A stretch of 64,000 nucleotides of DNA from Armatimonadota bacterium (GCA_046292385.1 JBKBRF010000008.1:32001-96000); one strand, 5' to 3'. Numbered from the stretch's first letter, positions 3,892 to 49,359 are shown. The notes: generated by a model not told the origin, from the letters alone. A program made the numbers and translations.

Positions 3892-4492
3892 ACTTCTCAC
3901 CGGCGTTCCACCCCGTGCCCTCACGCGGCGGAGCGGCCCTCCCGCGTGGGTGGCCCACCCGCAGTCCTTTCACGCTCCGCCTTCGGCTCCGCTAGCGGAT
4001 TGCTCCGGGCGTGCGCTCCGGCAGCCTGCGCCCCGCGACCGAAGACAACGATTCCCGCATTGCGGTGGTTCACGGGCCGCCCCGCCGCGCTCAAGCAGCC
4101 ACCCCCGGGTGCCCGCAAGCGGGCACCCGGGGGTGGCCACAAGTGAACCCCTCCAGCCCTGCCGCCGGCAGCCCTTCCGGGCTCCCATGGATTTGCAGGA
4201 ACCTGACCGGTGGCGTCCGGATGTGCGGCCGCAGGCGGCACTGGAGGGCGGCATTTGTGACCACCCCTGGGAGCCAGGGGTGGTCGCTCGACGGCGGCCG
4301 ATTCAGCCCGTGAACCAGACTGCTGTAGCAGTAGAGCGCACTGGCGCGGGATGAGCGCAGCGGTACGCACTCCCGGAGAGGCCCGCTAACGGAGCGAAGC
4401 GGAGTGTGAAAGGGCCGCCGGAGGGCACTCGCCGCGGGAGGGCTGAAGCGGCCGACTAGGGCGTGGGGTCGGTCTCACGGGTTCAACGCTGC
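3892..4492 (+). repeat. ~600-bp nested palindromic element, copy A (complete)
   Basis: Outer arms 3905-4014 and 4367-4470 are imperfect inverted repeats; perfect 19-bp stem 4098-4137; second ACCACCCCTGG..CCAGGGGTGGT palindrome at 4260-4284. Confidence 0.92.
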
Positions 4493-4605
4493 ATGACGCT
4501 GAGCCACAGCAGGCTCCGGAGCAACTCCAGCAATTCACGCGTCCTGAGCCGCCCCGGTGGTAAGACAGGAGAAAGGGCCTGCCAGGAGGCGGATCGGAGC
4601 GGCGG

Positions 4606-5916
4606 ATGAAGCGGTTTCTACAGGGATTGATCTTCGGGGCGGCGGTCGGGGCGGCGGTAGTCCTTGCGGCGGCGCCGGCGTTCGCGCAGCGCCCATCTTC
4701 TCTACCGGAAGAGCGGCCCGGGGGCGCCCTGGAGCGCGCGGAGCGTCCGGAGCTGGCGGTGCGGGTGACGCCGGAGATGGAGCGCTACTCCTCCACCCGC
4801 TACGCCCTCTACTTCCTCCGCAGCTTCCTGGGACTCCTGATCCTGCTGCTCTTCCTGTCCACCGGAGCCAGCGCGCGGCTGCGGGACCTGGCGGAGCGGC
4901 GGACCGGCAACCCGGTGCTCCGGACCTTCATCTACTTCCCGCTCCTCTGGCTCGGCATCACGGTCTGCTCGCTGCCGCTCTCCTTCTACAGCTCCTACCT
5001 GCTGCCGCACCAGTACGGGCTCTCCAACCAGACCGCCGCCGGCTGGGTGCAGGACGCGCTAAAGGGCTACGCGCTCACCGCGGTGATCGGCTCGCCGGTG
5101 GTGGCTCTGCTCTACTGGTCGCTCCGCCGCAGCCCGCGGCTCTGGTGGGTCGGCTTCTGGGTCGCGTGCATCCCGCTGCTGATCGCGGCGGTGCTGCTGA
5201 CGCCGCTGGTGGTCGACCCGCTCTTCAACCGGTACCGCCCGCTGCCGGAGTCGCCGCTGCGGGAGAGCCTGCTCGAGATGGCGGAGCGTGCCGGAATCGA
5301 GAACAGCCGCGTCTTCGAGGTCGACGCCAGCACCCGCACGAAGGCGGTGAACGCCTACGTGACCGGAATCGGTGGCTCGGCGCGGATCGTGCTGTGGGAC
5401 ACGCTGCTGGAAAAGCTGGATGACGACGAGGTGGTCGCCGTGATGGCACACGAGATGGGGCACTACGTGGAGCGCCACGTGGTGATCGGGCTCGGTGCCA
5501 GCATCGTCGGCACGCTGCTCGTCTTCATTCTGGTCGACCGCGGCGGCCGGCGCATCCTGGCTCGCAGGGGCGACCGCTGGCGGGTGCGCGGGCTCGACGA
5601 TCTCGCCGGCTTTCCGCTGGTGCTGCTCCTCGTCTCCGCCATCAACTTCTTCGGCGCCCCGGTGGAGAACGCCGTCTCCCGGACGATCGAGCGCCGGGCG
5701 GACGACTTCTCGCTGCGCCTGACGGGGGACGGCCGCGCCGCCGCCTCCGCTTTCGTGAAGCTCAGCGAGGCGAATCTCTCCCACCCGGCGCCGCCCCCGT
5801 TCATCGAGCTCTGGCTCTTCAGCCACCCGCCGCTGAACGAGCGGATCGAGAAAGCCTTGAGTTATCGATCATCAGCCAGCGCGGGGCTCGGGGAGGCGCC
5901 AGAGGACCAGCCCTAG
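4606..5916 (+). CDS. M48 family (Ste24-like) membrane zinc metallopeptidase
   Basis: HExxH 'AHEMGH', 'NAYVTG', 'ERRADDF', 'SHPP'; multiple TM segments. Confidence 0.9.
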   Translation: MKRFLQGLIFGAAVGAAVVLAAAPAFAQRPSSLPEERPGGALERAERPELAVRVTPEMERYSSTRYALYFLRSFLGLLILLLFLSTGASARLRDLAERRTGNPVLRTFIYFPLLWLGITVCSLPLSFYSSYLLPHQYGLSNQTAAGWVQDALKGYALTAVIGSPVVALLYWSLRRSPRLWWVGFWVACIPLLIAAVLLTPLVVDPLFNRYRPLPESPLRESLLEMAERAGIENSRVFEVDASTRTKAVNAYVTGIGGSARIVLWDTLLEKLDDDEVVAVMAHEMGHYVERHVVIGLGASIVGTLLVFILVDRGGRRILARRGDRWRVRGLDDLAGFPLVLLLVSAINFFGAPVENAVSRTIERRADDFSLRLTGDGRAAASAFVKLSEANLSHPAPPPFIELWLFSHPPLNERIEKALSYRSSASAGLGEAPEDQP

Positions 5917-10904: not shown

Positions 10905-11348
10905 CGAGCGGCTCAAGCGACCACCCCCACCGCCCGCAAGCGGGCACCCGGGTGGTCACAGGTGAAACTCTCCAGCCTTGCCTCCGGCAGCGCTTCCGGG
11001 CTTCGCGAACCCCGATGCCCTGGGGGCACGAAGCCGGTCGTGCTGCACCGCCTGAAGGCAACCCGTCGGCGGCCGACCGTGCCCAGACCACAGGCGCCCG
11101 CCGGGTGCCAGTTGTGGCCACCCCTGGGCGGCAGGGGTGGTAGCTCGAAGGGTCGGGAGGCAGCCCGTGAGCTGCCCTATCGGCGCGGGTTACGCATCCT
11201 GGCGCGGGAAGAGCTTTTCGACGTCAGCTCCCGCAGCGGCCTGCTAACGGAGCGCAGCGGAGTGTGAAAAGGCCGCGGAGGGCCTTCGTCGCGGGAGGGC
11301 TGCCTCCCGGCACAAGGGCTCGGGGTCGGGTCGCGGGATCGACGCTGC
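10905..11348 (+). repeat. Nested palindromic element, copy B (left outer arm missing)
   Basis: GCTCAAGC-ACCACCCC site, core, CCACCCCTGG..CAGGGGTGG site, and a right arm nearly identical to the reverse complement of copies D and E. Confidence 0.9.
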
Positions 11349-14467: not shown

Positions 14468-14750
14468 GACGGCGTCGGCACCGAGAGTCCGACCCCGTGC
14501 CCTAGTCGACCGATTCAGCCCTCCCGCGTCGAGGGCCCTCCGCGGCCTTTTCACGCTCCGGCTTCGCCTCCGCTAGCAGGCCGCTCCGGAAGTGCACCCC
14601 GTATTGCGCTTCCCGCGCCACTTCGTCCTACCGCCCCAAAAGCCGAGTTCACGCGCTGAATCGGTCGCCGTCGAGCAACCACCCCTGATACTCCAGGGGT
14701 GGTCACAACTGCCGCCCTCCGGGCCATCCTGCGGCTGCCCCTCCGGACGC
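14468..14750 (-). repeat. Nested palindromic element, copy C (right half only, fused to a REP-like unit)
   Basis: Right arm, ACCACCCCTG..CAGGGGTGGT site and partial core match copies A, F and H. Confidence 0.88.
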
Positions 14751-14767
14751 CGGAGCCAGGCCCATCT

Positions 14768-14820
14768 GAGTCCCCGAAGGGGGACTTCGTGCCGTGGTTG
14801 CCGCGGTTTCAACCGCCCGG
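14768..14820 (-). repeat. REP-like unit (GTCCCC-GAAG-GGGGAC ... GTTGCCGCGGTTTCAACCGCCC)
   Basis: Reverse complement is 52/53 identical to 50698-50750. Confidence 0.85.
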
Positions 14821-14842
14821 TAGCTACTACCGCTAACCGCCG

Positions 14843-16132: not shown

Positions 16133-18994
16133 CTATCGCCGCGAGCCGGAGACGGGGACGCGCACCAGGGGACGGGCCGGGTCGTCGCTGGCGATCTCGA
16201 GAGTTTGCCGGAAGCTCCCCGCGTTCTGCGGCGTGAAGGTGACGACCAGCTCCTGGGACTGCTTCGGACCGAGGACCACCGGTCCGGTAGGGCTGACGCT
16301 GAACGGCTCCCCGAGCGACTGCACCTGGAGCGCAAGCGGCCCCTTTCCGGTATTGCGAGCCTTGAGCCGCTCGACCCGGGTCCGGCTGCGGGTGACGCGG
16401 CCGAAGCTGATCTTTCCAGGCGTCAGGCGGAGCACCCCCTCCGCGGCCGGGGTGGTGATCGTCGCCAGGTTGGAGTACGGCGAGGCTCCCATGGCGCTGA
16501 CCGCCCGTACGCGGTACGTGTAGGTCGTCTCCGCGGAGAGCCCGAAGTCGCGGTAGCTCTCGGTCCCCGCTGCTACGGTGGCGATCGTCTCGAAGCCGTC
16601 GCCGTCCCAATCGGCGGGGACGCCCCCGATCCGGCGCTCGATCTGGAAGCCTCCTCCGTCCTGGAACCGGTCCAGCCAGGAGAGATGGAGGACGGTGGCC
16701 GCGTGCGCGGTCAGCGTCAGGTTGGAAGGCGGGCCGAACGGCGCGAAGCCGACCTTCGCCACAAAGGCGTCCTCCCCGCCGCTGTGAGTGGCACCCGGTC
16801 CATTCACCACGGGAAAGCCCTGGCCCGGCGTGGAGTAGGCGGTTCCGCAGACGTGGGCGACTCCCTGCGTGTCGAGCGCGATCCCCTCGCCCGTCTCGTC
16901 GTCGCTCCCGCCGATATAACCCGCGTAGACGAGCCCCGTCCCCCCGGGCTGGATCCTCGCCACGAAGAGATCGCTGCCGCCATTGTGCGAGAGGTCCGGG
17001 CCGGAAAGCGCGGGAAAGCCCTGCGCCGAAGACGACCAGGTGGTGCCGCAGACGTACGCGCCTCCCTGGCCGTCTACCGCGATGCTCTCTCCGTAGTCCG
17101 CGCCGGCGCCGCCCAGGTAGCCGCAGTATTCCAGCCCGGAGCCGCCCGGCTGCACCTTGGCGACGAACGCGTCGAAGTTGCCGCCGTAGACGAGCTCCGG
17201 TCCTACGAGGGCCGGAAAGCCCTGGTGGGGCGAGGAGAGGGTGGTGCCGCAGAGATAGGCCGCCCCTACGCTGTCGATCGCGATGCCTTGCGCCCAATCG
17301 GACCCGCTGCCGCCCAGGTAGCCGCAGTATGCCAACCCGGTGCCGTTCGGCAGTACTTTGGCGACGAAGCCGTCGGTCCAGCCTGCGAAGGTGGTGTCGA
17401 GCCCGCCGCTCACCGGAAACCCCGGACCCTGACCCGAGGCAGGGGCGGAGCTGGTCCAGCCGCACACGTAGGCGGCCCCCTGCTGATCGACCGCGATGCT
17501 GCTCGCGTAGTCGTCGTCGCCGCCGCCGATGTAACCGCAGTACTCCAGCGCGGCGCCGCTGGGACGCAGCTTCGCCACCCAGGCGTCGAGTCCGTTGTTC
17601 CACTGGAGGTCCGGGCCGGTCTTCACCGGGAAATCGAAGTACTCGGTTGCCAGGGTCCAGCCGCACACGTAGGCCGCGCCGTTCTGATCGACTGCGATCC
17701 CCTGCGCCCGCGTCCCCCAGCCTCCCCCGATATAGCCGCAGTACTCCAGCACGTCTCCCTTGGAATTCAGCTTCGCGACCCAGGCGTTCGGGTTGGAGTT
17801 GAGGGGTCCGTTGAAGGTGAGATCGGGCCCTACCCGCGCCGGAAAGCCCTGGCTCTCCGCCGAGTAGGTGATCCCGCACAGGTAGGCGCTCCCCTGCTGG
17901 TCCACCGCGATGGCGTTCGCCGAGTCCAGCCGGTGCCCGCCAATGTAGCCGCAGTAGAGGAGCCCCGCCCCATCCGGCCGCACCCGGGCGACGAACGCAT
18001 CCTGGCTCGTCCCTTTTACGAGACTCGGTCCGAACGTGACCGGGAAGCCCTGGAGCTCGGAGGAGCTGGTGGTGCCGCAGACGTAGGCGTAGCCCAGGCG
18101 GTCGACCGCGATGGCGTGGGCCGACTCGTCCGCGGCGCCGCCCAGGTAGCCGCAGTAGAGCAGCACGGTCGGATCGATGACCAGGGTCTGCTCGCTGTCG
18201 TACGCGCCGAGCCGGAAGGAGACGACGGGATCTCCACCCGGCCCCGCTTCGACGCGATAGGCGGAAGACACCGCAGCTCGGCTCCCTCCGGCCTGGGTGA
18301 AGCTCATCGGCGCCTCATCGACCACCGTTCGGATCGGATTCTCCAGGCGCAGCCGGCCGGCGTCGTCTACCTTCACCCGTTCGGCGCCGCGTACGCGCAG
18401 GCGGATGACGCTCGGGTCCGCGCCGGGCTGCACCTCGAACTGATACTTCAGGGCGGAGCCGTCGCCGCGATAGACCAGGTCGATCCCCGGCCAGACCTCC
18501 CGGTACCTCACGCCCAGGAAGCTCGGCACGCCGGACTGCCAGTCGGCCTGCTCACCGCGGAAGAAGCTGAAGACGCACCCGGCAGGCTCGCTGCCTACCA
18601 CTTCCACCGCCGGATTGCTGTCTACGAACTCGACCCCCAGCGTCCACCGGCGCTCCGCCTCCTCCAGGGCTGCTTCCGCCGCTGGACGAGAGCCGGAGCG
18701 CAGGAGCGCGGCGTCCGCGCGCGGTGGGCTGCCGGACCGCTCCCGCAGCGTGAAGCGCACTCCGGTGCGCGTAAAGCCGACGTCCGCCTCGCTGCCGCGC
18801 GTGGAGTAGAGCACCTCCGCGCCGGCCTGCCCGCGGTTCTCCACGAAATAGAGCGGCACCCGGGCGAGCGAGGCGGCCGCGGGCGCGCTCGTGGCCGGGA
18901 GCGGCTGCAGGACGCCCCCGGGGAGGGCGAGTGTCGCTGCTCCGCCGATCAGGGTCAAGAGCAAAGTCCACGGGGCGCGAGCAGGTGCGGACAT
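16133..18994 (-). CDS. Secreted SBBP beta-propeller repeat protein with FN3 and Ig-like (ASPM-SPD-2-Hydin-like) domains
   Basis: 'FVENRGQ', 'LVIDP'; repeated 'YCGYLGG..D..IAVD..G.AYVCG.T.S'; FN3 'TYTYRVRA'; C-terminal 'NTG..L..F.P..G'. Confidence 0.85.
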   Translation of the reverse strand: MSAPARAPWTLLLTLIGGAATLALPGGVLQPLPATSAPAAASLARVPLYFVENRGQAGAEVLYSTRGSEADVGFTRTGVRFTLRERSGSPPRADAALLRSGSRPAAEAALEEAERRWTLGVEFVDSNPAVEVVGSEPAGCVFSFFRGEQADWQSGVPSFLGVRYREVWPGIDLVYRGDGSALKYQFEVQPGADPSVIRLRVRGAERVKVDDAGRLRLENPIRTVVDEAPMSFTQAGGSRAAVSSAYRVEAGPGGDPVVSFRLGAYDSEQTLVIDPTVLLYCGYLGGAADESAHAIAVDRLGYAYVCGTTSSSELQGFPVTFGPSLVKGTSQDAFVARVRPDGAGLLYCGYIGGHRLDSANAIAVDQQGSAYLCGITYSAESQGFPARVGPDLTFNGPLNSNPNAWVAKLNSKGDVLEYCGYIGGGWGTRAQGIAVDQNGAAYVCGWTLATEYFDFPVKTGPDLQWNNGLDAWVAKLRPSGAALEYCGYIGGGDDDYASSIAVDQQGAAYVCGWTSSAPASGQGPGFPVSGGLDTTFAGWTDGFVAKVLPNGTGLAYCGYLGGSGSDWAQGIAIDSVGAAYLCGTTLSSPHQGFPALVGPELVYGGNFDAFVAKVQPGGSGLEYCGYLGGAGADYGESIAVDGQGGAYVCGTTWSSSAQGFPALSGPDLSHNGGSDLFVARIQPGGTGLVYAGYIGGSDDETGEGIALDTQGVAHVCGTAYSTPGQGFPVVNGPGATHSGGEDAFVAKVGFAPFGPPSNLTLTAHAATVLHLSWLDRFQDGGGFQIERRIGGVPADWDGDGFETIATVAAGTESYRDFGLSAETTYTYRVRAVSAMGASPYSNLATITTPAAEGVLRLTPGKISFGRVTRSRTRVERLKARNTGKGPLALQVQSLGEPFSVSPTGPVVLGPKQSQELVVTFTPQNAGSFRQTLEIASDDPARPLVRVPVSGSRR

Positions 18995-19356
18995 GAGAGG
19001 CGGTCTCCGGGAGCGAACGGGTGCGGCCGGGCGCCGAGTGCCCTTCGCTGCGGCGTTCACCGCGGACGGCTGGTTGACCTCCGAACAGAGGGCCATCTCA
19101 CGGTAAAGAGATCGGCGGCAGAATGAAGGGCGCGTAATCGGGCGCGGGTTCGACAGTCCCGTCCGGAGTCCGAGAGGGAACGCGGGAGGCTGCGGCGAAT
19201 CGAAGACCAGTCCGCTCCCTCGCCCGAAGCCCGCGTAAGCCTCGCGCGGACCTCCCGGCGCTGAATGACTTGCGCCGGATTGCGGGACGGACTCTAGATT
19301 TCGCATCGATTCGCCGGCACTGCCGCTCTGGCAGCATCCGATAGTAGGAGCGTTCC

Positions 19357-20953: not shown

Positions 20954-21562
20954 GCAGCCTCGATCCCGCAACCCGACCCCGCGCCCTTGTGCCGGGAGGC
21001 AGCCCTCCCGCGACGAAAGCCCTCCGCGGCCTTTCACACTCCGCTCCGCTCCGTTAGCAGGCCGCTGCGGGAACTCCCGCCGAGAAGCTCATCCCGCGCC
21101 AGGAAGCGTAACCCGTGCCGACAGGGAAGCTCACGGGCTGCCTCCCGACCCTTCGAGCTACCACCCCTCGCCAGGGGTGGTTACAACTGGCGCCCTCCGG
21201 GCGCCTCCGGTCTGAGCACGGTCGGCCGCCCGGTTGCCTCAAGCCGGTGCCGCACTACCAGCTTCGCGCCCCCAGCGCGTGGGGGTCTGCGAAGCCCGGA
21301 AGCACTGCCGAAGGCAGGGCTGGAGGGGTTCACCTGTGACCACCCCTGCGAGGGGTGGTCGCTTGAGCCGTCTGGAGCGGCCCGTGAACCGTGATCTGGC
21401 TACAGGCGCCGCCTACGGACGCGGAACGCAGCGCGCCGGGGAGCACGCCCGCAGCGCCCGCTAGCGGAGGCGAAGCCGGAGCGTGAAAGGGCCGCGGAGG
21501 GCCACCCACGCGGGAGGGCCGCTCCGGGCGGGGAGGGCGCGGGGTGGACCCTCGGCGCGATC
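20954..21562 (-). repeat. Nested palindromic element, copy D (complete)
   Basis: All modules present in reverse orientation; core 21187-21333. Confidence 0.92.
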
Positions 21563-23817: not shown

Positions 23818-24422
23818 GCAGCCTCGATCCCACGACCCGACCCCGAGCCCTTGTGCCGGAAGGCAGCCCTCCCGCGACGAAGGCCCTCCGCGGCCTTTTC
23901 ACACTCCGCTGCGCTCCGTTAGCAGGCCGCTGCGGGAGTGCAATTCGCCAAGCTCTTCCCGCGCCAGGAAGCGTAACCCGTGCCGACAGGGGAGCTCACG
24001 GGCTGCCTCCCGACCCTTCGAGCTACCACCCCTCGCCAGGGGTGGTCACAAGTGAACCCCTCCAGCCCTGCCTCCGGCAGCGCTTCCGGGCTTCGCAGAT
24101 CCGCTCGCCCGAGTGCGCGGCCGGTCGTGCCGGACCGGCTTGAGGCAACCCGTCGGCGGCGGACCGTGCCCAGACCACAGGCGTCCGGAGGACGCCAATT
24201 ATGACCACCCCTGGCGAGGGGTGGTCGCTTGAGCCGCCCGGAGCGGCCCGTGAGTCGCCGCATCGCTACTACCGCAGGCCACAAACGCGGAGCGCAGCCA
24301 GTCGAAGGGCACGCCCGGAGCAGTCCGCTAGCCCGGAGGGCGTGAAAGGACTGCGGGAGGGCCACCCACGCGGGAGGGCCGCTCCGGGTGGGGATGGCGC
24401 GGGGTGGACTCCCGGAGCGATG
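23818..24422 (-). repeat. Nested palindromic element, copy E (complete; central core inverted)
   Basis: Flanks collinear with copy D, but core 24052-24198 matches the reverse complement of the D core. Confidence 0.92.
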
Positions 24423-28000: not shown

Positions 28001-28604
28001 GCATCTCGCCGAGAATTCACCCCGTGCCCTCACCACCCGGAGCGGCCCTCCCGCGAGAATGGCCCTCCGCTGCCCTTTCACGCTCCGGCTTCGCCTCCGC
28101 TAGCGGGCGCTGCGGGCGTGCTGCCCAGAGCGTGCGCTTCGCGTCCGTCGGCTGCGGGTTGAGACAGCGCTGCGATTTACGGGCCACTCCGGGCGGCTCA
28201 AGCAGCCACCCCTATCGCCCGCAAGCGGGCACCCGGGGGTGGCCACAGGTGGAGCCTTCCGCCGCTGCCTACGGCAGCGCGTCCAGGCTCCTTCGGTAGC
28301 GTGAGCGAAGGCCTATCCCGTGGCGTTCGGAGGCGGAGCCGCAGGCTCTGCCGGAGGGCGGCAATTGTGACCACCCCTGGAGTGGCAGGGGTGGTAGCTC
28401 GACGGCGGCCGATTCAGCCCGTGAACTGGGCCTCTGTCACGGTAGCGCGCAGTGGCGCGGGAAGAGCGCAGCAGTACGCACTCCCGGAGCGGCCTGCTAG
28501 CGGAGGCGCAGCCGGAGCGTGAAAAGGCCGGCGGAGGGCACTCGCCGCGGGTGGGCTGAAGCGGCCGACTAGGGCTCGGGGTCGGGCCGCGGAATCGACG
28601 CTGC
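28001..28604 (+). repeat. Nested palindromic element, copy F (complete)
   Basis: All modules present; 116-nt core 28249-28364 closely matches the reverse complement of the G core. Confidence 0.92.
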
Positions 28605-33006: not shown

Positions 33007-33121
33007 GGATGGTTGACCGGTGAGGCGGATCCGGCAGCGTCCGGAATGCGGCAACGGGCCGCGGCCTCCTCACCAGTGTAGCATCCCACGCCGGAAGTTC
33101 AGAGCCGGTCCGAGTCGGCCT

Positions 33122-33898: not shown

Positions 33899-33963
33899 CT
33901 TGTTCTCGAATAGCTGCTGATCCTGAGGGGCCGTCCGCCGCCCGCTCGCACACCGAGCCTATT

Positions 33964-35073: not shown

Positions 35074-35124
35074 GCCGCTCCGCCTCCGCCCTCGTCTTAA
35101 CCACGGATGGTGAGGCGCTCCGGC

Positions 35125-35235
35125 GGGGCCTCACCCCCAACCCCTCTCCTGCGAGGAGAGGGGAGCTCTCGGTGGGATGCCGCGGCCAAACCGGGTCTCC
35201 CAACCTGCAACCTGCCAAGTTGCCAACCTGAAACC
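35125..35235. repeat. CCTCACCCCC..CCCTCTCC..GGAGAGGG hairpin repeat plus a (CAACCTG)n array
   Basis: Same hairpin motif at 41721-41844 and 54341-54450; heptamers at 35200-35235. Confidence 0.75.
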
Positions 35236-35239
35236 GGGG

Positions 35240-38200
35240 CTACGCCGGCTGCGGCGCCCGCTGCTCCGCCTCCACCTGGGCCACCAGCGGGTCCGCCAGG
35301 GAGCAGGAGAGCACCTTGCTCACGCCGCGCTCCTCCATCGTCACGCCGTAGAGCGTGTCCGCGGCTTCCATCGTGCCGCGGTTGTGCGTCACCAGGATGA
35401 ACTGCGTCCGGTGCGCGAACTCCTTCAAGATCGAGGTGAAGCGCCCGACGTTGCTCTCGTCCAGCGGCGCGTCGACCTCGTCCATCACGCAGAACGGGCT
35501 CGGCCGCACCTTCATCAGCGCGAAGATCATCGCGCCGGCCGTCAGCGCCCGCTCCCCCCCGGAGAGGAGAAGCAGGTTCTGCTGCTTCTTCCCCGGCGGC
35601 TGCACGATCACGTCGATGCCGGTCTCCAGCACGTCGGCGGGGTCGGTGAGCCGCAGCTCAGTCGTGCCGCCTCCGAACAGCTTCTTAAACATCTCGTCGA
35701 ACGCGGCGGCGATCTCGCGGAAGGCGCGCAGGAAGGTGTCGCGGCTGGCGAGGTCGATCTCCCGGATGGCGGTCTCCAGCTTACCGCGCGCTTCTTCCAG
35801 GTCGGCGCGCTGCCCCGTGAGGAAGTCGAACCGCTCCCGCGCCTCCGAGAACTGCTCCACGGCGGCGGGGTTCACCGCGCCGAGCGCCCGGATCTGCCGC
35901 CGCAGGCGCGCGATCTCCGCCTCCGGATCGGAAGAGGTGGCAAGCACCGCCTCCGCCGCTGCCTGGTCCCACGCGGCGCGGAGGCGCTCCACGGTGACCG
36001 GCTCCGGCTCCGGCGGCGCCTCTTCCCCTTCGGCGAGCGGCTGTTCTTCCGCGGCGGCGGTCTCCGGCTGCTGGAAAGCCAGGACCGACTCGACCCACTG
36101 CTCGCCCAGGTGGCGGTACTGCGTGTCGAGGGCGGCCAGCTCCACGTCGGCCCGGTGGCAGCGCTCCATCAGCTCCCGCAGCCGGGCGTTGAGGTCCTGC
36201 GTGCGGGCGCGCGCCGAAGCCGCCTCTCCCGTCAGGCGCGTCCGCGTCGCCGCCAGCGTCTCCATCTGCGCCCGGGCGGCATTCACCGCCTCCTGCGCGT
36301 CCGCCGCCTCGCCGGCCAGGGTGCTGAACGAGAGCCGCCGCTGCTCGCTCTCGGCGGTGAGGGCGCCCTGCTCCTTGAGACGCTCCGCACGCTGGCGGTC
36401 GAGGAAGCCGCCCGCCTCCACGGCGCGCCGCGAGGCGGCGATCGCCCCCTGCAGCTTCTGCTCCTGCTCCGCCAGCCGGACCCGCAGCTCGGTCGCGGCG
36501 CGCTCCGCCTCCCGGGCTTCCAACTCCAGGCGGCCGACCTCCGTCCGCGCGGCGCTCACCGACTCTTCACTATCGGTCTGGTCGGTCGCGGCCGGCGCCT
36601 TCAGCTCCTCCTCGGCGGCGGCGAGCGACCGCGCCGCCGACTCCGCCTCCCGCTCCAGGCGCGCCACTTCCGCCTTCGCGCGCTCCAGGCGCCCCTGCGC
36701 ACGGCCGACGTCCTGCCCGCGCCGGTCCGCCTCCCTGGCCTGGGCGCGGTGCTCCACGCGGGCCGCTTCCGCGCGGCTCTCCCGCTCCCGCAGGACGCTC
36801 TGCAGCCGCTTCAGCTCGGCGTCGGCGGCGCGCACCGCCTCCCGCGCGTCCGCTGCCCGCTGCTCCAGCTCCGGCAGCTTGCCGCGGAGCGTCTCCAGCT
36901 CTCGCCGGCGCGCCAGCATCGCCGCGGCGGCGCCCTCCGCTCCGAGCGCTCCGCCCCCGACCGCGCCGTGCGCCGCCCGCCAGGAGCCGTCCCGCGCCAC
37001 CCAGAGGTCGGGAGCGTCGCCCCGCTCTTCCACGGCAGCGGAGGCGAGTGCTTCCGGCTCGCAGACGCGGACGCGGCCGAGCAGCAGCCGCGCCCAGGCC
37101 AGCGCCGGCCCCTCCCCCGTCACCTGCTCTCCCAGCGATGCCGGCAGCGGCGCCGCCGGGCAGAGCGGCTCTCCCGGCAGCAGCAGCGCCGCGAGCTTCT
37201 TCCCCTTGAGCCACCTGAGCGCCGCGGCAGCAGCCTCCGGCGAGTCGGCGAGCACCGCGTCGGCGTAGACCCCCAGCGCCGCCTCGACCGCCTTCTCCAG
37301 CCCGGCGGGGACCTGCAGCCGCTCCACCAGCAGCGACCACTCCCCGGCGACCTCCCGCCGGCGCGCGGCGGCGAGGAGCTGGCGGGCCCCGGCGGCGGCC
37401 CCCTCCCCGCGCTCCCCCAGCTCCGTCAGCGCCTGGAGACGGGCGCTGTGGCTGCTCAACTCCCCGGTGGTCCGGTCCAGCGTTCCGCGCGCGGCGGTGA
37501 GCGCCTGCTCGGCAGCGCGCGCCGCGTCCCGCTCGACCTTGATCTCGCCGGTCAGCGCCTCGGCCCGCGACAGGTGCTCCGCCGCCGCCTTCTGGAAACT
37601 CTCCCGTTCGAGCCGGATCCGCTCCAGCTCCGCCTCGGCGTCTTCCAGGCTCTCGGCGGCGCGCTTGCGGTCTGCCGCCAGGCTCTCCACCCGGCCGGCG
37701 AGCGACTTCGCCCGCGCCTCCAGCTCCGACTGCCTCCGCGCGCGCGCCAGCCACGCCTGCCTCAGCAGCTCGAGCTGTTCCGCCGCCGCCTGGTGGATGC
37801 GCGTCTTCTCCCGCGCTGCCCCCTGCGCGGCGATGAGCTGCTGGCGGAGCTGGTCGACCTCCCGCTTGAGCTCCGCCTCGTCTCGCGCCGTGTTCTCGGA
37901 GCGGCGGACCTGGTCCTCGATCCGGCCGGCCAGCTCGTCCAGCTCCTTCGCCAGCGTGCGGAGGCGGCGCTGCACCTCTCCGGCGCGCTCCTCCGCCCGT
38001 GCCTTCTCCGCTTCGGCGTCGGCCACTCGCTTGAGACCGTCGGTCTCCGCGCGGCGGAGCGCCTCCGCCTCCACCTCCAGCGCCTCGAGCTGCTTTCGGG
38101 TCTCCGCCTCCGCGGCCTGGCCGGCGGCAAGCTCCTCCTCCAGCCGCTTGCGCTCTCCGTGCAGCTCCTCCACGAGCTGCGCCAGCCCGCCGCGCTCGAT

Positions 38201-38914
38201 CTGGAACCGCCGCAGTTTCGCGCCGTACCAGGCGTTCTCCACCTCCAGCAAGCGCGCGGAAAGCTCCCGGAAGCGCTTCGCCGCCGCGGCCTGACGCTGG
38301 AGCGGCCCGAGCTGCGCCTCGATCTCGGCGACGATGTCGTTCACACGGAGCAGGTTCTGCTGCGTGTGCTCCAGCTTCCGCTCCGCCTCTTTCTTGCGGA
38401 CCCGGTACTTCTTGATCCCCGCCGCCTCTTCGAAGATCTCCCGGCGATCCTCCGCGCGGACGCTCAGGATCTGGTCGATCTCTCCCTGGTTCACCAGCGA
38501 GTAGGCGTCCCGACCCACCCCGGTATCGAGGAACAGCTCGTAGATGTCGCGCAGGCGGCACGGCACCTGGTTGATCCGGAACTCGCTCTCCCCGGAGCGG
38601 TAGAGCCGGCGGGTGACGGTGATTTCGGTGAAGTCGAGCGGCAGGGCGCGGTCGGAGTTATCCAGCGTGAGGGAGACCTCGGCCATGCCGAGCGGCCGGC
38701 GCCGGTCGTTGCCGGCGAAGATGACGTCCTGCGCCGAGCTGCCGCGCAGCTCCCGGACGTTGTTCTCGCCCAGCACCCAGAGGATGGCGTCCGAGATGTT
38801 GCTCTTGCCGGAGCCGTTCGGCCCCACCACGCAGGTGATGCCGGGGTTGAAGACGATCTGCGTCTTCTGGGCGAAGGTCTTGAACCCGTGGATGTCGAGC
38901 TGCTTGAGGTACAC
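35240..38914 (-). CDS. smc: Chromosome segregation protein SMC
   Basis: GTG start; Walker A 'GPNGSGKSN', coiled coils and hinge, 'LSGGE', 'DEVDAPLD'. Confidence 0.96.
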   Translation of the reverse strand: MYLKQLDIHGFKTFAQKTQIVFNPGITCVVGPNGSGKSNISDAILWVLGENNVRELRGSSAQDVIFAGNDRRRPLGMAEVSLTLDNSDRALPLDFTEITVTRRLYRSGESEFRINQVPCRLRDIYELFLDTGVGRDAYSLVNQGEIDQILSVRAEDRREIFEEAAGIKKYRVRKKEAERKLEHTQQNLLRVNDIVAEIEAQLGPLQRQAAAAKRFRELSARLLEVENAWYGAKLRRFQIERGGLAQLVEELHGERKRLEEELAAGQAAEAETRKQLEALEVEAEALRRAETDGLKRVADAEAEKARAEERAGEVQRRLRTLAKELDELAGRIEDQVRRSENTARDEAELKREVDQLRQQLIAAQGAAREKTRIHQAAAEQLELLRQAWLARARRQSELEARAKSLAGRVESLAADRKRAAESLEDAEAELERIRLERESFQKAAAEHLSRAEALTGEIKVERDAARAAEQALTAARGTLDRTTGELSSHSARLQALTELGERGEGAAAGARQLLAAARRREVAGEWSLLVERLQVPAGLEKAVEAALGVYADAVLADSPEAAAAALRWLKGKKLAALLLPGEPLCPAAPLPASLGEQVTGEGPALAWARLLLGRVRVCEPEALASAAVEERGDAPDLWVARDGSWRAAHGAVGGGALGAEGAAAAMLARRRELETLRGKLPELEQRAADAREAVRAADAELKRLQSVLRERESRAEAARVEHRAQAREADRRGQDVGRAQGRLERAKAEVARLEREAESAARSLAAAEEELKAPAATDQTDSEESVSAARTEVGRLELEAREAERAATELRVRLAEQEQKLQGAIAASRRAVEAGGFLDRQRAERLKEQGALTAESEQRRLSFSTLAGEAADAQEAVNAARAQMETLAATRTRLTGEAASARARTQDLNARLRELMERCHRADVELAALDTQYRHLGEQWVESVLAFQQPETAAAEEQPLAEGEEAPPEPEPVTVERLRAAWDQAAAEAVLATSSDPEAEIARLRRQIRALGAVNPAAVEQFSEARERFDFLTGQRADLEEARGKLETAIREIDLASRDTFLRAFREIAAAFDEMFKKLFGGGTTELRLTDPADVLETGIDVIVQPPGKKQQNLLLLSGGERALTAGAMIFALMKVRPSPFCVMDEVDAPLDESNVGRFTSILKEFAHRTQFILVTHNRGTMEAADTLYGVTMEERGVSKVLSCSLADPLVAQVEAEQRAPQPA

Positions 38915-39142
38915 GTGGGAAACCGGGCGAGGGGTACCGCTGGCGCGGGGTCGGTGGGTTTTCCATTCTAGCCGGTGGGAGGGCTGGGCGGAACCCATGG
39001 AGGGATTGTCGGCGGGCTCCAGGGAGTGGCTGTATGACGGGTGAGAGATTCGCGCTGGGAGTGATGCAGCGTTGGAACCGCGGGACCGCCCTCTTGCGAT
39101 AGTCGAGGGACTCCTTGTCCGGTTCGTGCACTACCATCGTGG

Positions 39143-39723
39143 GCAGCGTTGGAACCGCGGGACCGACCCCGAGCCCTAGTCGTCCGCTTCAGCCCTCCCG
39201 CGACGTGTGCCCTCCGCCGGCCCTTTCACACTCCGCTTCGCTCCGTTAGCGGGCCGCTCCGGGTGTTCAGCCTGGCATGCTCTTCCCGCGACTCCGCGCG
39301 CTACCGTGACAGAGGCCCAGTTCACGGGCTGAATCGGCCGCCGTCGAGCTACCGCCCCTGACACCCAGGGGCGGTCACAAAGGGCGTCCTCCGGCAGAGC
39401 CTACGGCTCCGCCTCCGAACGCCACTGGATAGGCCTTCGCTCGCGCTACCGAAGGAGCCTGGAGGCGCTGCCGGAGGCAGCGGCGGAAGGCTCCACCTGT
39501 GGGCACCCCTGGAGAGGGGTGGCTGCTTGAGCCCGGCGGAGTGGCCCGTGAGTCGTTGTATCGAAGAAGGCGCAGCGCCCGAACGCGGCGCGCAGGTCCT
39601 CGCCGCGCACGCCCGGACCAGCCCGTTAGCGCCGGAGGCGCGTGGGAGGGCTGAGGGAGGGCCAACCACGCGGGAGGGCCGGTCCGCCGGGTGAGGGCAC
39701 GGGGTGAAACCTCGGGAAGAAGC
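39143..39723 (-). repeat. Nested palindromic element, copy G (complete)
   Basis: All modules present; palindrome variant ACCGCCCCTG..CAGGGGCGGT carries a compensatory change. Confidence 0.92.
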
Positions 39724-39883
39724 GCTTCTCGTGAAGCGGAAGAACACCCCGGAGAAGGCCTCCCACCTCCCCCGCCGAAGTAGTCGATGGCGGCACGCAC
39801 GTTTTCGCCTAAGCAGGAGCCTGCCTGCTCGCCACAATCTAGGTCGGCACGCGCCGGGGCGTGCCGGTTGCCGGAGAGCCGCG

Positions 39884-40957
39884 ATGGCCCTGTTCCTGCA
39901 GATCCTGGGAATCCTGTTCCTCGTCCTGGTGCTGGTGGTGGTGGGAGGCTTCTTCCTGCTGCGCAGCAAGTTCCGCAAGGCGATGTCTGAACTGGTGGCG
40001 CAGGCCGAGGAGATGAAGTACGGGATCACCCCCACCCGCATCCACCTGCGCCGGCGGGACGCCGTGGCGTGGCAGAATCCGGAGGCGGCGGAATCGTACT
40101 CCAGCGCGCTCCTGGCCCTGGGATTCGAGGACGCGGGCAGCTACGACATCGAGGAGCTCGACTTCGTCCGCCTGCGCGGCTTCGCCCACCCGGGGGAGTC
40201 GGTCTACGCCGCCGTCTACGAGCACGAGAAGGCGGGCACGTGGTTCGACCTCGTCAGCTTCTACCAGGACGGCACCAGCGCCACCTACAGCAACGCGCCG
40301 CGCCTGGCGCAGGGGATGGACCAGCGGCCGGGGCATTCCAAGACGTTCGACAACGGCGCCGACCTGCAGACGCTGTTCCAGCGGATGCTGGCGGAGCGCC
40401 CCGGCGGCGCCCTCTCCCCCGCCACGACCTCCGGGTTCGCGAACGCGCTGGAGCGGGCCTACGCGGACCACATGGACTGGCGCCACGCCCGCGGCCCTTC
40501 CGAGGACGAGATCCGGTTCGTCGCCGCCGAGATGGGAGAAGAGCCCTCCGACGAGCAGCTCGCCGAGGTGCGGGAGCAGCTGGAGCTGCAGTCGCTCGCC
40601 GGTCTGGACGAGAGCCTGCGGGAGCGGTTTCTGGAGCAGTCGAGCCTCTCCGCCGCAGAGTGGGAAGCCGTGCGGGAGCGCGTGGTGATCGTCCACGACC
40701 GCCTCAAGCCGGAGATGCTCGCCGAGCGTTACACCGAATGGGTCAACATGTGCGGCGAGTACGCGGAAGAGGAGGACGAGCGGGAAGAACAGGACGACCC
40801 GGAGTACCAGAAGGCGCTCGCCGCCGCCCGCGTCTCCGAGCCCCGCGCCGCCTTCGCCGCCCTGAACGAGCAGCTCCCGGAAGAGAAGCGGTTCCGCCTC
40901 CTCGGCACCGTGACCTACCCCCTCCCCGCAGCCGTCTACGTCGCTCCGGAGGGATAG
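39884..40957 (+). CDS. Membrane-anchored hypothetical protein
   Basis: N-terminal TM helix; GGAGAG Shine-Dalgarno motif; strong coding bias. Confidence 0.75.
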   Translation: MALFLQILGILFLVLVLVVVGGFFLLRSKFRKAMSELVAQAEEMKYGITPTRIHLRRRDAVAWQNPEAAESYSSALLALGFEDAGSYDIEELDFVRLRGFAHPGESVYAAVYEHEKAGTWFDLVSFYQDGTSATYSNAPRLAQGMDQRPGHSKTFDNGADLQTLFQRMLAERPGGALSPATTSGFANALERAYADHMDWRHARGPSEDEIRFVAAEMGEEPSDEQLAEVREQLELQSLAGLDESLRERFLEQSSLSAAEWEAVRERVVIVHDRLKPEMLAERYTEWVNMCGEYAEEEDEREEQDDPEYQKALAAARVSEPRAAFAALNEQLPEEKRFRLLGTVTYPLPAAVYVAPEG

Positions 40958-47229: not shown

Positions 47230-48425
47230 GGCATGCTCTCCCGTACGGCCGGGGCGCGGTGCCCGCGGAGTCGCTCCGCCACGCCGAGCGGCAGCAGCGC
47301 GGCCGGCTTGCTCTTTCGCGTGACCCAGAGCTGCAGCGCGGCGCGCGCGAAGGCGTAGCTCTTCAGCCGCCAGCGCGGCGCCACGAGCAGCACAAACGCC
47401 AGCATCCCGCTGAGCGTGGGCGGGTAGAGCGCCAGGTAGCGGATGGCGCGCGTGAACATCGTCCGCTCCGCCTTGTACACCTCGTCGCCGCTCATGAAGT
47501 CGTATTCCCGCCGGCCGCTCTCCCACGCGCGCTGGATGGAGAGGCAGTCGAGCACGCCCCCGGGCGAGAACTTGCGGTAGTCCTCGTCGTAGGCGCCCTG
47601 GTAGAGCCAGATCCGCTCCGGCGTGAGGAAGTTGATCTCGAAGGCGACCGGCTGGCCGTCCATCCGGGCGATCCAGAGCTCCATCTCCTCGCCGCCGCCG
47701 AGCGCCAGGAGCGCCCGACGCAGCAGCTCCTGCCCCTCGCCCGGCTGGAACCGCGCCACGCCTTCGCGTCCCTTCCACGAGCGCGCCTCGATCGCCGCCA
47801 CCTCCTCCACGCGCGCCGCCGCCTCCGCGCCGACGTAGCGCTCCACCGTGCCGCCCTCCTTCAGCCACTTGCGGCCGGCCTTCTGCATCCGCTTCAACCA
47901 GCCGGGGCCGCGGGCGCAGAGCGCGGTCCAGTCGGCGTCCATGGCGGTGTACGGAGCGGTAGTCCCCTCCACCCCCGCGGAGCGGAGGCCCTTCGGCGCG
48001 GGGACGCGCGTCAGCTCCGAGTAGCCGTCGCCAAGCTGCCGGAGCACCGCGAGGTCCCATTCCCCGCGGCGGCGCTGAAGCTCGTCCAGCAGCAGCCGCT
48101 CCGCCTCGGGGCAGTCCGCCGCAAAGAGGAAGCCGAGGTAGTCCGAGCGGCCGTCGCCGATGAATCTCAGCACGCGGAAGCCGAGCTGGCGCTCCCGGCG
48201 CAGCGGCGCCACGCCGACCAGCTCCCCGCCGCGCCGGGCGGTGAGCACGTACGGCTCGCAGCCGGCGCAGAGCTGCTCCCAGCAGATCTCGGTCCAGTCG
48301 AAGCTAAGGAATGGGTTGCGGGGAGCGCTCCGAGCGTAGAGCGCTCCCCATTCTTCACGCAGCGCCCGGAGCTCGCCGGGTGTGCGGAGACATTCGATGG
48401 TCGTTCCGGAGTTGTCCAGGGACAT
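47226..48425 (-). CDS. CelD/BcsL-like GNAT acetyltransferase
   Basis: 'NPFLS.DW', 'LVGVAPL', 'SDYLG', 'SPGGVL', 'DFMSGDEVYK'. Confidence 0.85.
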   Translation of the reverse strand: MSLDNSGTTIECLRTPGELRALREEWGALYARSAPRNPFLSFDWTEICWEQLCAGCEPYVLTARRGGELVGVAPLRRERQLGFRVLRFIGDGRSDYLGFLFAADCPEAERLLLDELQRRRGEWDLAVLRQLGDGYSELTRVPAPKGLRSAGVEGTTAPYTAMDADWTALCARGPGWLKRMQKAGRKWLKEGGTVERYVGAEAAARVEEVAAIEARSWKGREGVARFQPGEGQELLRRALLALGGGEEMELWIARMDGQPVAFEINFLTPERIWLYQGAYDEDYRKFSPGGVLDCLSIQRAWESGRREYDFMSGDEVYKAERTMFTRAIRYLALYPPTLSGMLAFVLLVAPRWRLKSYAFARAALQLWVTRKSKPAALLPLGVAERLRGHRAPAVRESMP

Positions 48426-48753
48426 GGCTTGCTTTTATTGGGAGGCCGGCCGCAGCCGGGCCTGTTGCTTGAGTCTCTAGCGCGGACTTTCAGGCGGCTC
48501 CATCGGGCGTCTGACGCCGGAGCCCGGGGCCCGTCGATCCTGCATCCGGCCGATACTACCCCGGCGTCTGGATCTCAAACCCTTCCCCGGGAACGGAGCG
48601 GGCGCTCTTGCCGGGAGCGGTTCCCTTGCGAGCGCCGGGAGGGCTTGCGGTTTAGGTGGGGGCGTGCCGGGTAGAAGGGAGTGGCCGGCCGGTTCGCGGC
48701 TGGGTTGCAATCCAGCGTGTGAAGGCGAGGATGACCTCATCTTGCAGGAAGCG

Positions 48754-49359
48754 GCATCTCTTCGAAGTTCCACCCCGTGCCCTCACCGGGGGGAGCGGCC
48801 CTCCCGCGTGTTTGGCCCTCCCTCAGCCCTTTCACGCTCCGGCTGCGCCTCCGCTAGCGGGCTGGTCCGGGCGTGCTCTTCGCCAGGCTGTGCTCCGCGT
48901 TCGCAGGCTGCGGTGTCTCCATCACGGCGACTCACGGGCCGCTCCCCCCGGCTCAAGCAACCACCCCTCGCCAGGGGTGGTCACAAGGGGAGCCCTCCGC
49001 CGCTGCCTTCGGCCGCGCCTCCGTGCTCCTTTGGACTGGCTGGCTGCGTCGTGACTGGCTCGGTAGTCCAGAACTCGGACGTCCAGAGGGGCAGCCGCAG
49101 GCTGGACCGGAGGACGGCACCTGTGACCACCCCTGGGCGCCAGGGGTGGTCGCTCGACGGCGGCCGGTTCAGCCCGTTAACCCGGGTTTTGGTGAGATGG
49201 GGGGCCGTGGCGCGGGAAGAGCTTCACGCGGCGCACTCCCGGAGCGGCCTGCTAGCGGAGGCGAAGCCGGAGCGTGAAAAGGCCGCGGAGGGCTCTCGCC
49301 GCGGGAGGGCTGAACCGACCGACTAGGGCGCGGGGTCGGTCCGGCGGTGCCGACGCCGC
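48754..49359 (+). repeat. Nested palindromic element, copy H (complete, with an extra inverted terminus at 49388-49420)
   Basis: All modules present; perfect 16-bp arm stem 48786-48801/48936-48951. Confidence 0.92.

Follow-up and report, generated by a model that had tools for sequence, protein, structure and literature searches.

In BIMEs, units of two types (Y and Z) alternate. The sso and priming signals of rolling-circle replicons are folded in a strand- and orientation-specific manner over 150–300 nt and have long imperfect stems; a TAGCGT-like loop motif is conserved in ssoA. According to PMC3116915, single-stranded DNA is thought to be the substrate in REP/BIME/REPIN biology. The bcr1 repeat, a dispersed element of about 155 bp in the Bacillus cereus group, is described in PMC3184786 as transcribed and as bearing compensatory changes that keep a cruciform-like RNA structure; the same source gives its genomic distribution as not conserved. 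Here we describe a repeat in a window of 64,000 nucleotides from an Armatimonadota bacterium (GCA_046292385.1 JBKBRF010000008.1:32001-96000), whose first letter is the origin of all window coordinates below.

The repeat resembles REP, BIME and REPIN elements as a set of multicopy intergenic palindromic units, usually in inverted pairs but with solos as well, that persists for long in its lineage; compensatory changes across the hairpin occur both here and, as PMC3116915 reports, in REPINs. It differs in that the unit is 240–340 nt long with at least five helices, compared with a hairpin of 20–40 nt, and in that selection for pairing acts demonstrably on one strand only. Whereas a REPIN combines two short REPs in one hairpin, each arm here folds alone into a multi-helix structure of about 240 nt, and the arms form two classes. 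In contrast to the REPIN/RAYT system, no cognate RAYT was found here, and the Y1 genes are flanked by different palindromes. Compared by description, bcr1 comes from another phylum, is shorter and simpler (two stem-loops) and has 5-bp flanking direct repeats, whereas none could be demonstrated for the repeat analysed here. We read the latter as related to REP/BIME/REPIN- and bcr1-type repeats, but new and unusually complex.

With MITEs (Correia/nemis, Nezha, Chunjie, ERIC) the repeat has in common its non-coding intergenic nature, inverted arms, stable predicted folds, high copy number, terminal inverted repeats and the lack of an internal transposase. In contrast to MITEs, its arms are diverged classes, each a self-contained fold that also occurs alone (79 solos), no clear target-site duplication and no parent IS were found, and it is conserved over three genera with structure-preserving changes. 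The sso signals are likewise folded and oriented, and the TAGCGG, TAGCAG or TAACGG motif of the repeat is comparable with the TAGCGT-like motif of ssoA; however, about 140 chromosomal copies are present here. A rolling-circle sso beside a Rep gene was rejected as a candidate, as the copies are chromosomal, their neighbours are ordinary housekeeping genes, and collections of plasmid (72,556) and phage (50,697) records contained no match to the unit.

Arrangement and distribution of the repeat family

The left and right arms of the sequence-only reading represent two classes of a single folded unit, which is also found as a solo. The arms are copies of this unit and belong to a lineage-specific dispersed repeat family. 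A search with nhmmer gave 140 matches to the unit in the genome, 133 of them near-full, and model R1 gave 141, of which 15 lie in the window. The near-full copies comprise 27 inverted pairs and 79 solos. In 26 of the 27 pairs a class I arm is joined to a class II arm, and 25 pairs have a length of 538–593 bp; all terminus-outward arm pairs within 900 nt span 385–688 nt. Both ends of a pair bear CCCCGNGCCCT in opposite orientation, and the whole arms can be aligned with each other. Class I, beta and gamma are distinct subfamilies, the latter two within class II. Copies are intergenic and clustered, with 12 loci on contig C8 (2.5 expected) and 8 loci on contig C40 (1.0 expected).

The repeat was detected in three of seven genomes of one bacterial family, with 141, 13 and 8 matches; 134 further genomes from the phylum were all negative, which makes three of the 141 sampled overall. 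From the 141 copies in this genome, against 13 and 8 in its relatives from two other genera, the family would have multiplied here, both as solos and as inverted pairs of class I and class II. Rfam 15 gave no match at the gathering score in the 64,000-base window; a permissive Rfam scan of 3800-4600 gave 11 matches, all far below gathering, the best with 28.7 bits (threshold 90) and 25.9 bits (threshold 48).

Predicted fold of the repeat unit

The unit is read from the pair centre outward to the terminus, where it ends in ...AGGGCNCGGGGT. In this direction the fold comprises a conserved hairpin, P3 (CCACCCCU..AGGGGUGG), which covaries across copies. It is followed by an irregular helix of about 30 bp that consists of P0, tandem G.A pairs at 112:279 and 113:278, and the 15-bp closing stem P1. 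This helix is capped by a branched domain of about 130 nt that contains additional covarying helices (P2, P2b) as well as invariant single-stranded motifs. The TAGCGG, TAGCAG or TAACGG motif mentioned above is likewise invariant in the unit. C(GNA)G triloops are present on the selected strand at P2c in all 87 copies fitting the search pattern, and near the centre in 66 of 90 perfect hairpins. The multi-helix architecture and the conserved junction nucleotides are common to the three genera.

Copies of the repeat within the window

All seven stem pairs quoted in the sequence-only reading were found in place, together with a palindrome in copy G, and the enclosed domains, given there as about 130 nt, have loops of 128–135 nt. 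Of the seven stems, four are perfect, two have one mismatch each and one has two.

At copy A, the class I arm (3899..4152, minus strand, R1 score 180.9 bits) contains the stem 3924-3939/4074-4089. The fold of this arm is read on the minus strand from centre to terminus, and the one A/C mismatch of the stem on the plus strand corresponds to a U.G pair on the minus strand. The P3 hairpin of the arm (4098..4137; CCACCCC...GGGGTGG, read directly from the sequence) carries an inserted mini-hairpin, and the tetraloop of this P3 insert is CTTG, CTCG or CGTG in eight copies. The class II (beta) arm of copy A lies at 4245..4480 on the plus strand (224.5 bits) and contains the stem 4295-4309/4440-4454. 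Copy B is a class II (gamma) arm at 11102..11337 (plus strand, 217.1 bits) with the perfect stem 11155-11166/11297-11308 and no class I partner; to its left there is centre-like sequence only, at 10917-11002 (family D4). Copy C is a solo arm of class II (beta; C8_46493) at 14481..14718 on the minus strand (214.2 bits) and contains the perfect stem 14507-14519/14655-14667.

In copies D and E a class II (gamma) arm on the minus strand (20965..21196, 203.1 bits, and 23829..24061, 223.7 bits, respectively) is paired with a class I arm on the plus strand (21324..21556, 188.9 bits, and 24189..24416, 182.7 bits). The gamma arm of copy D belongs to a gamma/alpha2 form of about 800 nt with outer modules. 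Copy F has its class I arm at 28008..28258 on the minus strand (175.9 bits) and its class II (beta) arm at 28355..28593 on the plus strand (212.2 bits). The class II (beta) arm of copy G (39155..39390, minus strand, 213.8 bits) contains the doubly changed P3 palindrome ACCGCCCCTG..CAGGGGCGGT at 39351-39375, and its class I arm (39487..39716, plus strand, 172.1 bits) contains the stem 39532-39547/39676-39691 with two adjacent mismatches. Both arms of copy H have perfect stems: 48786-48801/48936-48951 in the class I arm (48761..48996, minus strand, 206.7 bits) and 49165-49175/49307-49317 in the class II (beta) arm (49111..49347, plus strand, 207.7 bits).

Compensatory changes among copies and between genera

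The proposal that both strands of a stem change together from copy to copy was borne out by alignment of the genomic copies, where compensation is strong, exceeds what chance or shared ancestry would give and survives phylogenetic controls. RNAalifold predicted 45 pairs from 14 arms of the window, 17 of which are changed on both sides. When 29,768 column pairs were scanned blind, P3, P0 (N':N, 178 nt apart), P1 and P2 were among the top-scoring ones. In 43 phylogenetically independent sister pairs of copies, 137 base pairs are doubly and 118 singly changed, and 115 of the 137 double changes are Watson-Crick in both sisters. Permutation of partners (2000 permutations) gave on average 31.0 double changes, 3.5 of them Watson-Crick, with a Watson-Crick maximum of 13.3.

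The analysis was extended to 49 distinct copies from three genomes, in an alignment built to fit the structure of the model and hence leaning towards it; the MAFFT-based counts (P3 covariation, sister pairs, wobble) are free of this bias. In the three-genome alignment 95.8% of cells pair compared with 77.9% in shuffles, and 357 cells are doubly changed compared with 110.7 ± 8.1 in shuffles, none of 500 shuffles being as high; with partners slid, 27–61 such cells were obtained. Compensation was seen in 28 of 45 pairs, including 13 of the 15 pairs of the closing stem, with up to five pair types per position. The two other genera show compensation as well, with closing stems that are quite different in sequence but fully complementary.

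Subfamily structure, mosaic recombination or insertion into palindromic targets might mimic such a pattern in the absence of any constraint on pairing. Class I, beta and gamma are indeed clear subfamilies, and some sister pairs are mosaic, with an inner divergence of 0.02–0.08 and an outer divergence of 0.30–0.35. However, the independent-contrast counts lie above every permutation, and three mosaic pairs, nearly identical in the inner domain but divergent in the frame, show 0, 0 and 1 double changes. A frame lacking the inner domain was never seen: the span from terminus to P0 is 180–259 nt in 87 of 88 cases, and the sole shorter one is due to an internal deletion. Together with the different, fully complementary stems of the other genera and a strand-biased wobble that cannot arise without selection (see below), this makes an origin of the pattern in copy history alone very improbable.

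The sequence-only reading had also offered active copy-correction of the stems, in which one half would be re-templated from the other during propagation, by snap-back synthesis or hairpin repair, in the absence of selection. As such a process would give, many of the stems are perfect, and among sisters double changes are about as common as single ones (137 versus 118). Against it, wobbles and mismatches are inherited throughout subfamilies (the U.G at 117:274 in gamma, the C/T mismatch at column 27 in beta and, in the CTCCCG subfamily, a 3x3 block of mismatches), and two wobble pairs are nearly invariant. The stems differ in 1–18% of pairs between sisters compared with 30–40% in variable loops and flanks, and the closest sister pairs carry single changes and no double ones. 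The strand bias of the mismatches (77 versus 7) is likewise not expected from symmetric re-templating. These data speak against active copy-correction, which in our view is already largely refuted and which we regard as hardly credible. Double changes track the divergence of the inner domain (r = 0.63) and not that of the outer frame (r = 0.20), which speaks against recombination; this rise with divergence is the pattern expected from stepwise compensatory evolution.

Strand specificity of the wobble pairs

A strand bias of G-U/G-T pairs had been noted from a few cases and was confirmed at scale. Counted from the six most frequent pair types at each position, the wobble cells of the long helix number at least 268 on the centre-to-terminus strand compared with 7 on the other, and 77 compared with 7 when the nearly fixed positions 110:281 and 111:280 are left out. 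Of 133 copies, 131 have U.G at 110:281 and 130 have it at 132:259, and position 111:280 is C:G in 72 copies and U:G in 60. At model pair 78:373, U.G is retained in 48 of 48 copies from the three genomes. Alternation of A:U and G:U occurs on the selected strand alongside that of C:G and U:G. Because wobble pairs are tolerated almost exclusively there, selection acts on the centre-to-terminus strand alone.

The phylogenetic controls, the two further genera and the strand specificity all agree with the suggestion that the fold is under selection as ssRNA or ssDNA. Very probably, therefore, a strand-specific single-stranded fold of a dispersed repeat is kept by purifying selection, whichever molecule forms it, and the copy-specific matched changes are ordinary compensatory substitutions fixed under this selection.

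Transcript or single-stranded DNA

As to the molecule, we lean towards a transcript, at slightly less than even confidence in the full explanation including the fold: the unit may be a structured non-coding RNA module of a mobile or formerly mobile repeat. Several features point in this direction, namely the invariant U.G pairs, the C:G/U:G and A:U/G:U alternation, the tandem G.A pairs, the CUUG/CUCG tetraloops of the P3 insert on the selected strand, and the multi-helix architecture with conserved junctions in three genera. Transcription combined with compensatory changes is described for bcr1 (PMC3184786), and REPs are transcribed according to PMC4550694.

Folded ssDNA comes as a close second and is a possible, if less likely, form of the selected molecule. 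The repeat would then belong with REP/REPIN-like or single-strand-signal-like elements, though giant in size. A trans-acting enzyme (an HUH-type transposase or a priming/nicking protein) would recognise its centre-to-terminus strand while this is transiently single-stranded, and propagation would be limited to copies that keep the fold. The C(GNA)G triloops recurring on the selected strand are consistent with this, GNA-loop mini-hairpins being described as a classic, extraordinarily stable DNA motif (PMC13037366, PMC3201870), as are the expanded number and clustering of copies and the compensatory changes common in REPIN hairpins (PMC3116915). The two classes are inverted in 26 of 27 pairs, as in REPINs and BIMEs. 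A scan for sigma-70 sites in 20500-40400, which covers four pairs, revealed no promoter-like site inside the elements, the sigma-70 consensus being one that may not be the host's, and intrinsic-terminator-like sites in the same region numbered 7 compared with 6.2 expected. This evidence is weak, and neither a promoter or terminator nor a partner enzyme was identified. PF00078 (reverse transcriptase) gave no match in this genome, which is 98.45% complete, and was found in four of six relatives. Any spread would therefore have been through DNA, and a retron ncRNA or RT-copied RNA was rejected as a candidate. Finally, solos have their functional strand on the C-rich strand in 33 cases versus 15, a weak bias as clustered copies are not independent.

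On the other hand, this C-rich bias would be opposite to that expected for folding of the lagging-strand template. This genome has two strong Y1-transposase genes (Y1_Tnp, C51:25920-26261 and C22:55627-55965 of G000), and both are flanked by different short palindromes of their own and not by the arms. By comparison of coordinates, the Y1 genes of relatives do not adjoin copies either, and the relatives G005 and G006 have no Y1 match on the contigs of copies or beside them. Y1 is present in six of the seven genomes and the element in three, so that their presence does not track. PF07282 (TnpB) was absent from all seven family genomes, with 8 of 14 control genomes positive, and a TnpB omega-RNA or IS200-IS605 derived element was rejected on this basis. 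Moreover, a multi-junction fold of 240 nt with invariant G.T and tandem G.A pairs is unusual for known ends of ssDNA transposons.

Alongside the transcript reading, it is conceivable, though rather doubtful, that the repeat is a new class of large structured nucleic-acid module in which class I and class II form divergent "heterodimer" gene pairs, either as a self-propagating structured RNA gene or as a chromosomal single-strand signal. Such a module would comprise about 240–340 nt with a 30-bp irregular helix and a branched domain, and would have multiplied to about 140 copies in this genome. Its fold would be required either for the spread of the module, carried out by a kind of enzyme for which substrates of this sort have not yet been described, or for some function in the host, for example the organisation of the chromosome.

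Ends, mobility and genomic context

The gamma/alpha2 form extends between TCTGTACTAC... and ...GCGCTGTG; a possible CTGT at both ends is indistinguishable from the element's own sequence, and the borders of solos fade gradually into the flanks. Contigs from other samples provided no clean example of an empty site. As neither the ends nor any target duplication could be delimited, the mobility of the repeat is a matter of inference. Within the match list for this genome there was no plus/minus arm pair 0.9–6 kb apart, as an autonomous parent IS would give.

Orientation towards neighbouring genes, based on crude gene calls, was unbiased for pairs (25 versus 29), solos (39 versus 40) and the centre side (37 versus 36). 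The lack of a fixed orientation argues against a gene-linked cis-regulatory RNA, whether leader or 3′ UTR. A guide-type RNA aimed at neighbouring DNA was rejected as well, as the longest words that variable segments of a copy share with its own 3-kb flanks averaged 9.44 and 8.75 nt, compared with 9.37 and 8.71 nt for segments from other copies. Genes that flank the copies of the relatives map in this genome mostly to places distant from all copies.

Organization of the repeat unit

The arms represent a single repeat unit, each arm being one copy, and 14 arm sequences of the window could be aligned over their whole length. An HMM built from these arms had 140 matches in the source genome (7.04 Mb in 91 contigs, approximately 70% G+C), 133 of them near-full, and a covariance model had 141, of which 15 are located in the window. 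The unit is roughly 240–340 nt long. Its outer terminus is CCCCGNGCCCT on the inward-reading strand, and it continues approximately 35 nt outward of this terminus and approximately 85 nt past the P3 hairpin on the inner side. Inverted pairs with outward termini number 27 and account for 54 of the 133 arms; they span 385–688 nt (538–593 nt in 25 of the 27). The other 79 arms are solo, a count that is too high since some of these arms are found at contig ends or adjoin a truncated partner.

With one exception, a class I arm faces a class II arm in these pairs (26 of 27). Class I arms carry the tag CAC or CCC and a stem ending in GGAGCGGCCC, class II arms the tag AGT, TGT or CGT and a stem ending in CAGCCC. 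The left and right arms distinguished in the sequence-only reading correspond to class I and class II, but both are copies of a single unit and copy G is merely inverted.

The gamma + alpha2 subfamily, gamma being a class II group, is young and possesses additional outer modules (approximately 800 nt). These modules, approximately 138 and 85 nt, are conserved in copy D (approximately 20840–21640), copy E (23700–24490) and 10 further loci. TCTGTG-like words abound in the flanks of gamma + alpha2 pairs and might represent a target motif or another small repeat. At 20913–20938, in the gamma outer module, a T-run directed into the element comes after a terminator-like hairpin. The genome has 228 terminus motifs compared with approximately 133 arms, an excess that may reflect short pieces with the terminus only or a small repeat related to the unit. 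An isolated additional terminus motif (GAGGGCACGGGGTG...) is located approximately 50 nt past the right end of copy H (49384–49433; also 39687–39736; family D19), with a motif match at 49392 and a flank able to form a small hairpin.

Covariation of the stems

Co-variation within the arms is real, as four independent lines of evidence demonstrate. All seven stem pairs quoted in the sequence-only reading were recovered exactly at their positions in the window, as was the palindrome at 39351–39375. The seven stems enclose 128–135 nt; four are perfect and the others have one, one and two mismatches. RNAalifold analysis of the 14 window arms yielded 45 pairs, 17 of which had changes on both sides. 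In a structure-blind MAFFT alignment of the 133 arms, three to five pair types were found at positions of the closing stem. At the alignment columns 28:173, for example, 58 copies have AT, 33 GC and 30 TA, and at 24:177, 54 have GC, 45 CG, 12 AT and 4 TA.

To control for relatedness, a tree was constructed from non-stem columns and the comparison was restricted to 43 sister pairs and 39 base pairs. The sister pairs showed 118 single and 137 double changes; in 115 of the latter, the pair was Watson–Crick in each sister. Permutation of the partners gave 31.0 ± 6.7 doubles and 3.5 Watson–Crick doubles (maximum 13.3 in 2000 permutations), and slid partners gave 2–11. Joint changes of the stems, as described for the window, persist in larger alignments and beyond phylogeny. 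When all 29,768 column pairs were screened blindly for changing together in sister pairs, the top matches included P3 (87:105, 89:103), the closing stem P1 and the inner helix P2, and also the long-range pair N':N (107:284), whose columns are 178 nt apart.

Copies in two other genera have very different closing stems, e.g. CACCCGCAGGCTCCC / GGGAGCCTGCGGGCG, which are still complementary. In an alignment of 49 distinct copies from three genomes, which was fitted to the model and is hence biased towards it (the MAFFT-based counts are free of this bias), 95.8% of the cells were paired versus 77.9% in shuffles, 357 cells showed double changes compared with 110.7 ± 8.1 in shuffles (none of 500 as high) and 27–61 with slid partners, and both sides had changed in 13 of 15 closing-stem pairs.

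Strand specificity and architecture of the fold

Read from the centre of the pair to the terminus, the long helix tolerates wobbles at positions where the opposite strand would have A.C mismatches. U.G is present in 131 of 133 copies at 110:281 and in 130 of 133 at 132:259; at 111:280, 72 copies have C:G and 60 have U:G, and 117:274 has 33 wobbles. Counted from the six pair types listed per position, at least 268 wobble cells were found on this strand versus 7 on the opposite one. Without the two nearly fixed positions the counts were 77 versus 7, and the G-U strand bias suspected from a few cases is thereby upheld over 133 copies. The invariant U.G is retained in 48 of 48 copies from the three genomes.

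The helix P0 (N'GCUY / RGGCN) is in register with P1, the column sum being 391 for both, and tandem G.A pairs join the two (G.A at 112:279 in 132 of 133 copies). Together they form an irregular helix of approximately 30 bp, which is capped by a branched domain of approximately 130 nt with the covarying helices P2 and P2b; GCUNGA, CCGU, CGCGG and UA(G/A)C are among the motifs of this domain common to the three genera. For the right arm of copy A, single-sequence folding gave −121.1 kcal/mol (z = −2.94) for the centre-to-terminus strand and −107.1 kcal/mol (z = −3.75) for the other strand, so that the strands are indistinguishable by folding alone.

Origin of the matched changes

The evidence points to stepwise compensatory evolution under purifying selection as the source of the matched changes, not to mechanical re-templating. 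Between sister copies, stems differ in 0.9–18% of the sister pairs per position class, compared with 30–40% for variable loops, flanks and centre. Mismatch blocks and wobbles are passed on through whole subfamilies, and C:G, U:G and U:A intermediates coexist at single positions. The earlier inference had left the choice between a selected single-stranded fold and active copy-correction. Its first part is supported by the co-variation and the one-stranded wobbles; the slow stems, the inherited wobbles and mismatch blocks, the one-stranded bias and the coexisting intermediates argue for selection and against the second part.

Recombination was considered as a source of the double changes. Mosaic sister pairs, nearly identical in the inner domain yet divergent in the frame, do occur, and show 0, 0 and 1 double changes. 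Over all sister pairs, the number of double changes correlated with divergence of the inner domain with r = 0.63 and with that of the frame with r = 0.20; in the closest sister pairs, all changes are single. A small element inserting into palindromes already in place does not explain the matched changes, because no empty frame without inner domain was found among 88 spans, 87 of which measure 180–259 nt, the remaining short one being an internal deletion.

RNA or single-stranded DNA

Selection may well act on RNA, although we hold this reading only tentatively. The invariant U.G pairs, the tandem G.A, the multi-junction architecture and CUUG/CUCG tetraloops in the P3 insert (8 copies) point to RNA, and there are precedents in the descriptions of bcr1 as a transcribed repeat with compensation (PMC3184786) and of transcribed REPs (PMC4550694). 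A selected ssDNA is a possibility to which we give somewhat less credence. C(GNA)G triloop hairpins recur at two places on the selected strand, at P2c in 87 of 87 copies fitting the pattern and near the centre in 66 of 90 perfect hairpins, and match a DNA mini-hairpin motif described as extraordinarily stable (PMC13037366, PMC3201870). The population biology of the unit also resembles that of REP/BIME/REPIN as outlined in PMC3116915. Likewise in favour of ssDNA, a scan of 20500–40400 for sigma-70 promoters and terminators found no such sites inside elements, with a sigma-70 consensus that may not be the host's.

Whether selection acts on REP-like repeats as RNA, as ssDNA or just during propagation is a long-standing question, which the strand-specific wobble signal makes testable and for which this family is a clean system.

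Distribution and candidate partners

The unit was detected in three of seven genomes of one bacterial family (141, 13 and 8 matches), corresponding to three of eight genomes of the order and three of 141 sampled from the phylum; the remaining genomes searched gave no match. Copies of the relatives occur as pairs, solos and tandem runs. The genes flanking them map mostly away from copies in the source genome (tblastn, 16 filtered ORFs), which fits independent insertion. The sole flanking gene of a relative near such a copy is of ADH type (best match 84% identity, within approximately 3.3 kb), and a 41%-identical paralogue is located 131 nt from another copy; this is not convincing as shared synteny of copies across genera.

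TnpB was not found in any of the seven genomes of the family, nor a reverse transcriptase in the source genome. Y1 transposase genes are present in the latter but were rejected as partners, being framed by different short palindromes. These IS200/RAYT-like genes (G000:C51:25920-26261 and G000:C22:55627-55965, on two other contigs of the source genome) each lie between their own short inverted palindromes, GCGAGGGGTTGAAAACCCCTCGC and its inverse for the first, and seem to be REP/RAYT-type systems of their own, with no relation to the arms. A guide function was also rejected, as variable loops match local flanks no better than permuted loops.

Neither a matching Rfam family nor similar DNA in plasmid and phage collections was found. 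A loose pattern scan of a contig collection returned 113 stretches, and the 80 loci listed were all single and from unrelated taxa and were taken as chance. DNA runs X2–X6, from three other studies, contain 21–42% of the sampled words of window positions 30000–39999, so that near-identical strains are present in other samples and, with better assembly, could provide filled and empty sites; no RNA run was listed for these positions. Contigs from runs X2–X5 over 20400–40399 were short pieces only, with joint sides of 20–24 letters and no usable empty site.

No paper on the repeat unit was found in the open-access library searched. Within the structured dispersed bacterial repeats, the unit is a hitherto undescribed member of unusual complexity. 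Dispersed repeats with compensating hairpins are already known from REPINs and bcr1. The present unit differs from these in its much larger, multi-helix and strand-specific fold, in the two unit classes that pair together and in a structure conserved over three genera, all from a bacterial family that has received little study. Its secondary structure is defined by covariation among approximately 160 natural variants, which makes it a candidate new Rfam family.

Genomic setting

The copies are intergenic and clustered: of 111 loci in all, 12 are on the contig of the window (2.5 expected) and 8 on contig C40 (1.0 expected). By crude, GC3-based gene calls, no orientation preference relative to adjacent genes was seen for pairs (25 vs 29), solos (39 vs 40) or the centre side (37 vs 36). 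Genome-wide, where |GC skew| exceeds 0.01, solo arms have their selected strand on the C-rich strand in 33 cases and on the G-rich one in 15. As a sign of replication-strand bias this is weak and is not relied on, the counts being non-independent owing to a run of 8 same-orientation solos on C40.

Judged only from DUF1501 and 3-keto-disaccharide hydrolase domains among its genes, the host family is probably planctomycete-like. An 86-nt inverted repeat, 90% complementary (14740–14825 / 50693–50778, pair I16), falls outside the arm model; it adjoins copy C and lies downstream of a glycosyltransferase gene. Inside a 1078-codon minus-strand ORF (16133–19369), a unit of 201 or 213 nt is repeated six to seven times in tandem (families D1, D6 and D7). 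Pfam assigns these copies to SBBP beta-propeller repeats, along with DUF7948 and Ig-like domains. The composition is extreme at 36001–38000 (G+C 0.772, GC skew −0.150, AT skew −0.241), within an SMC-type gene (35243–39130).
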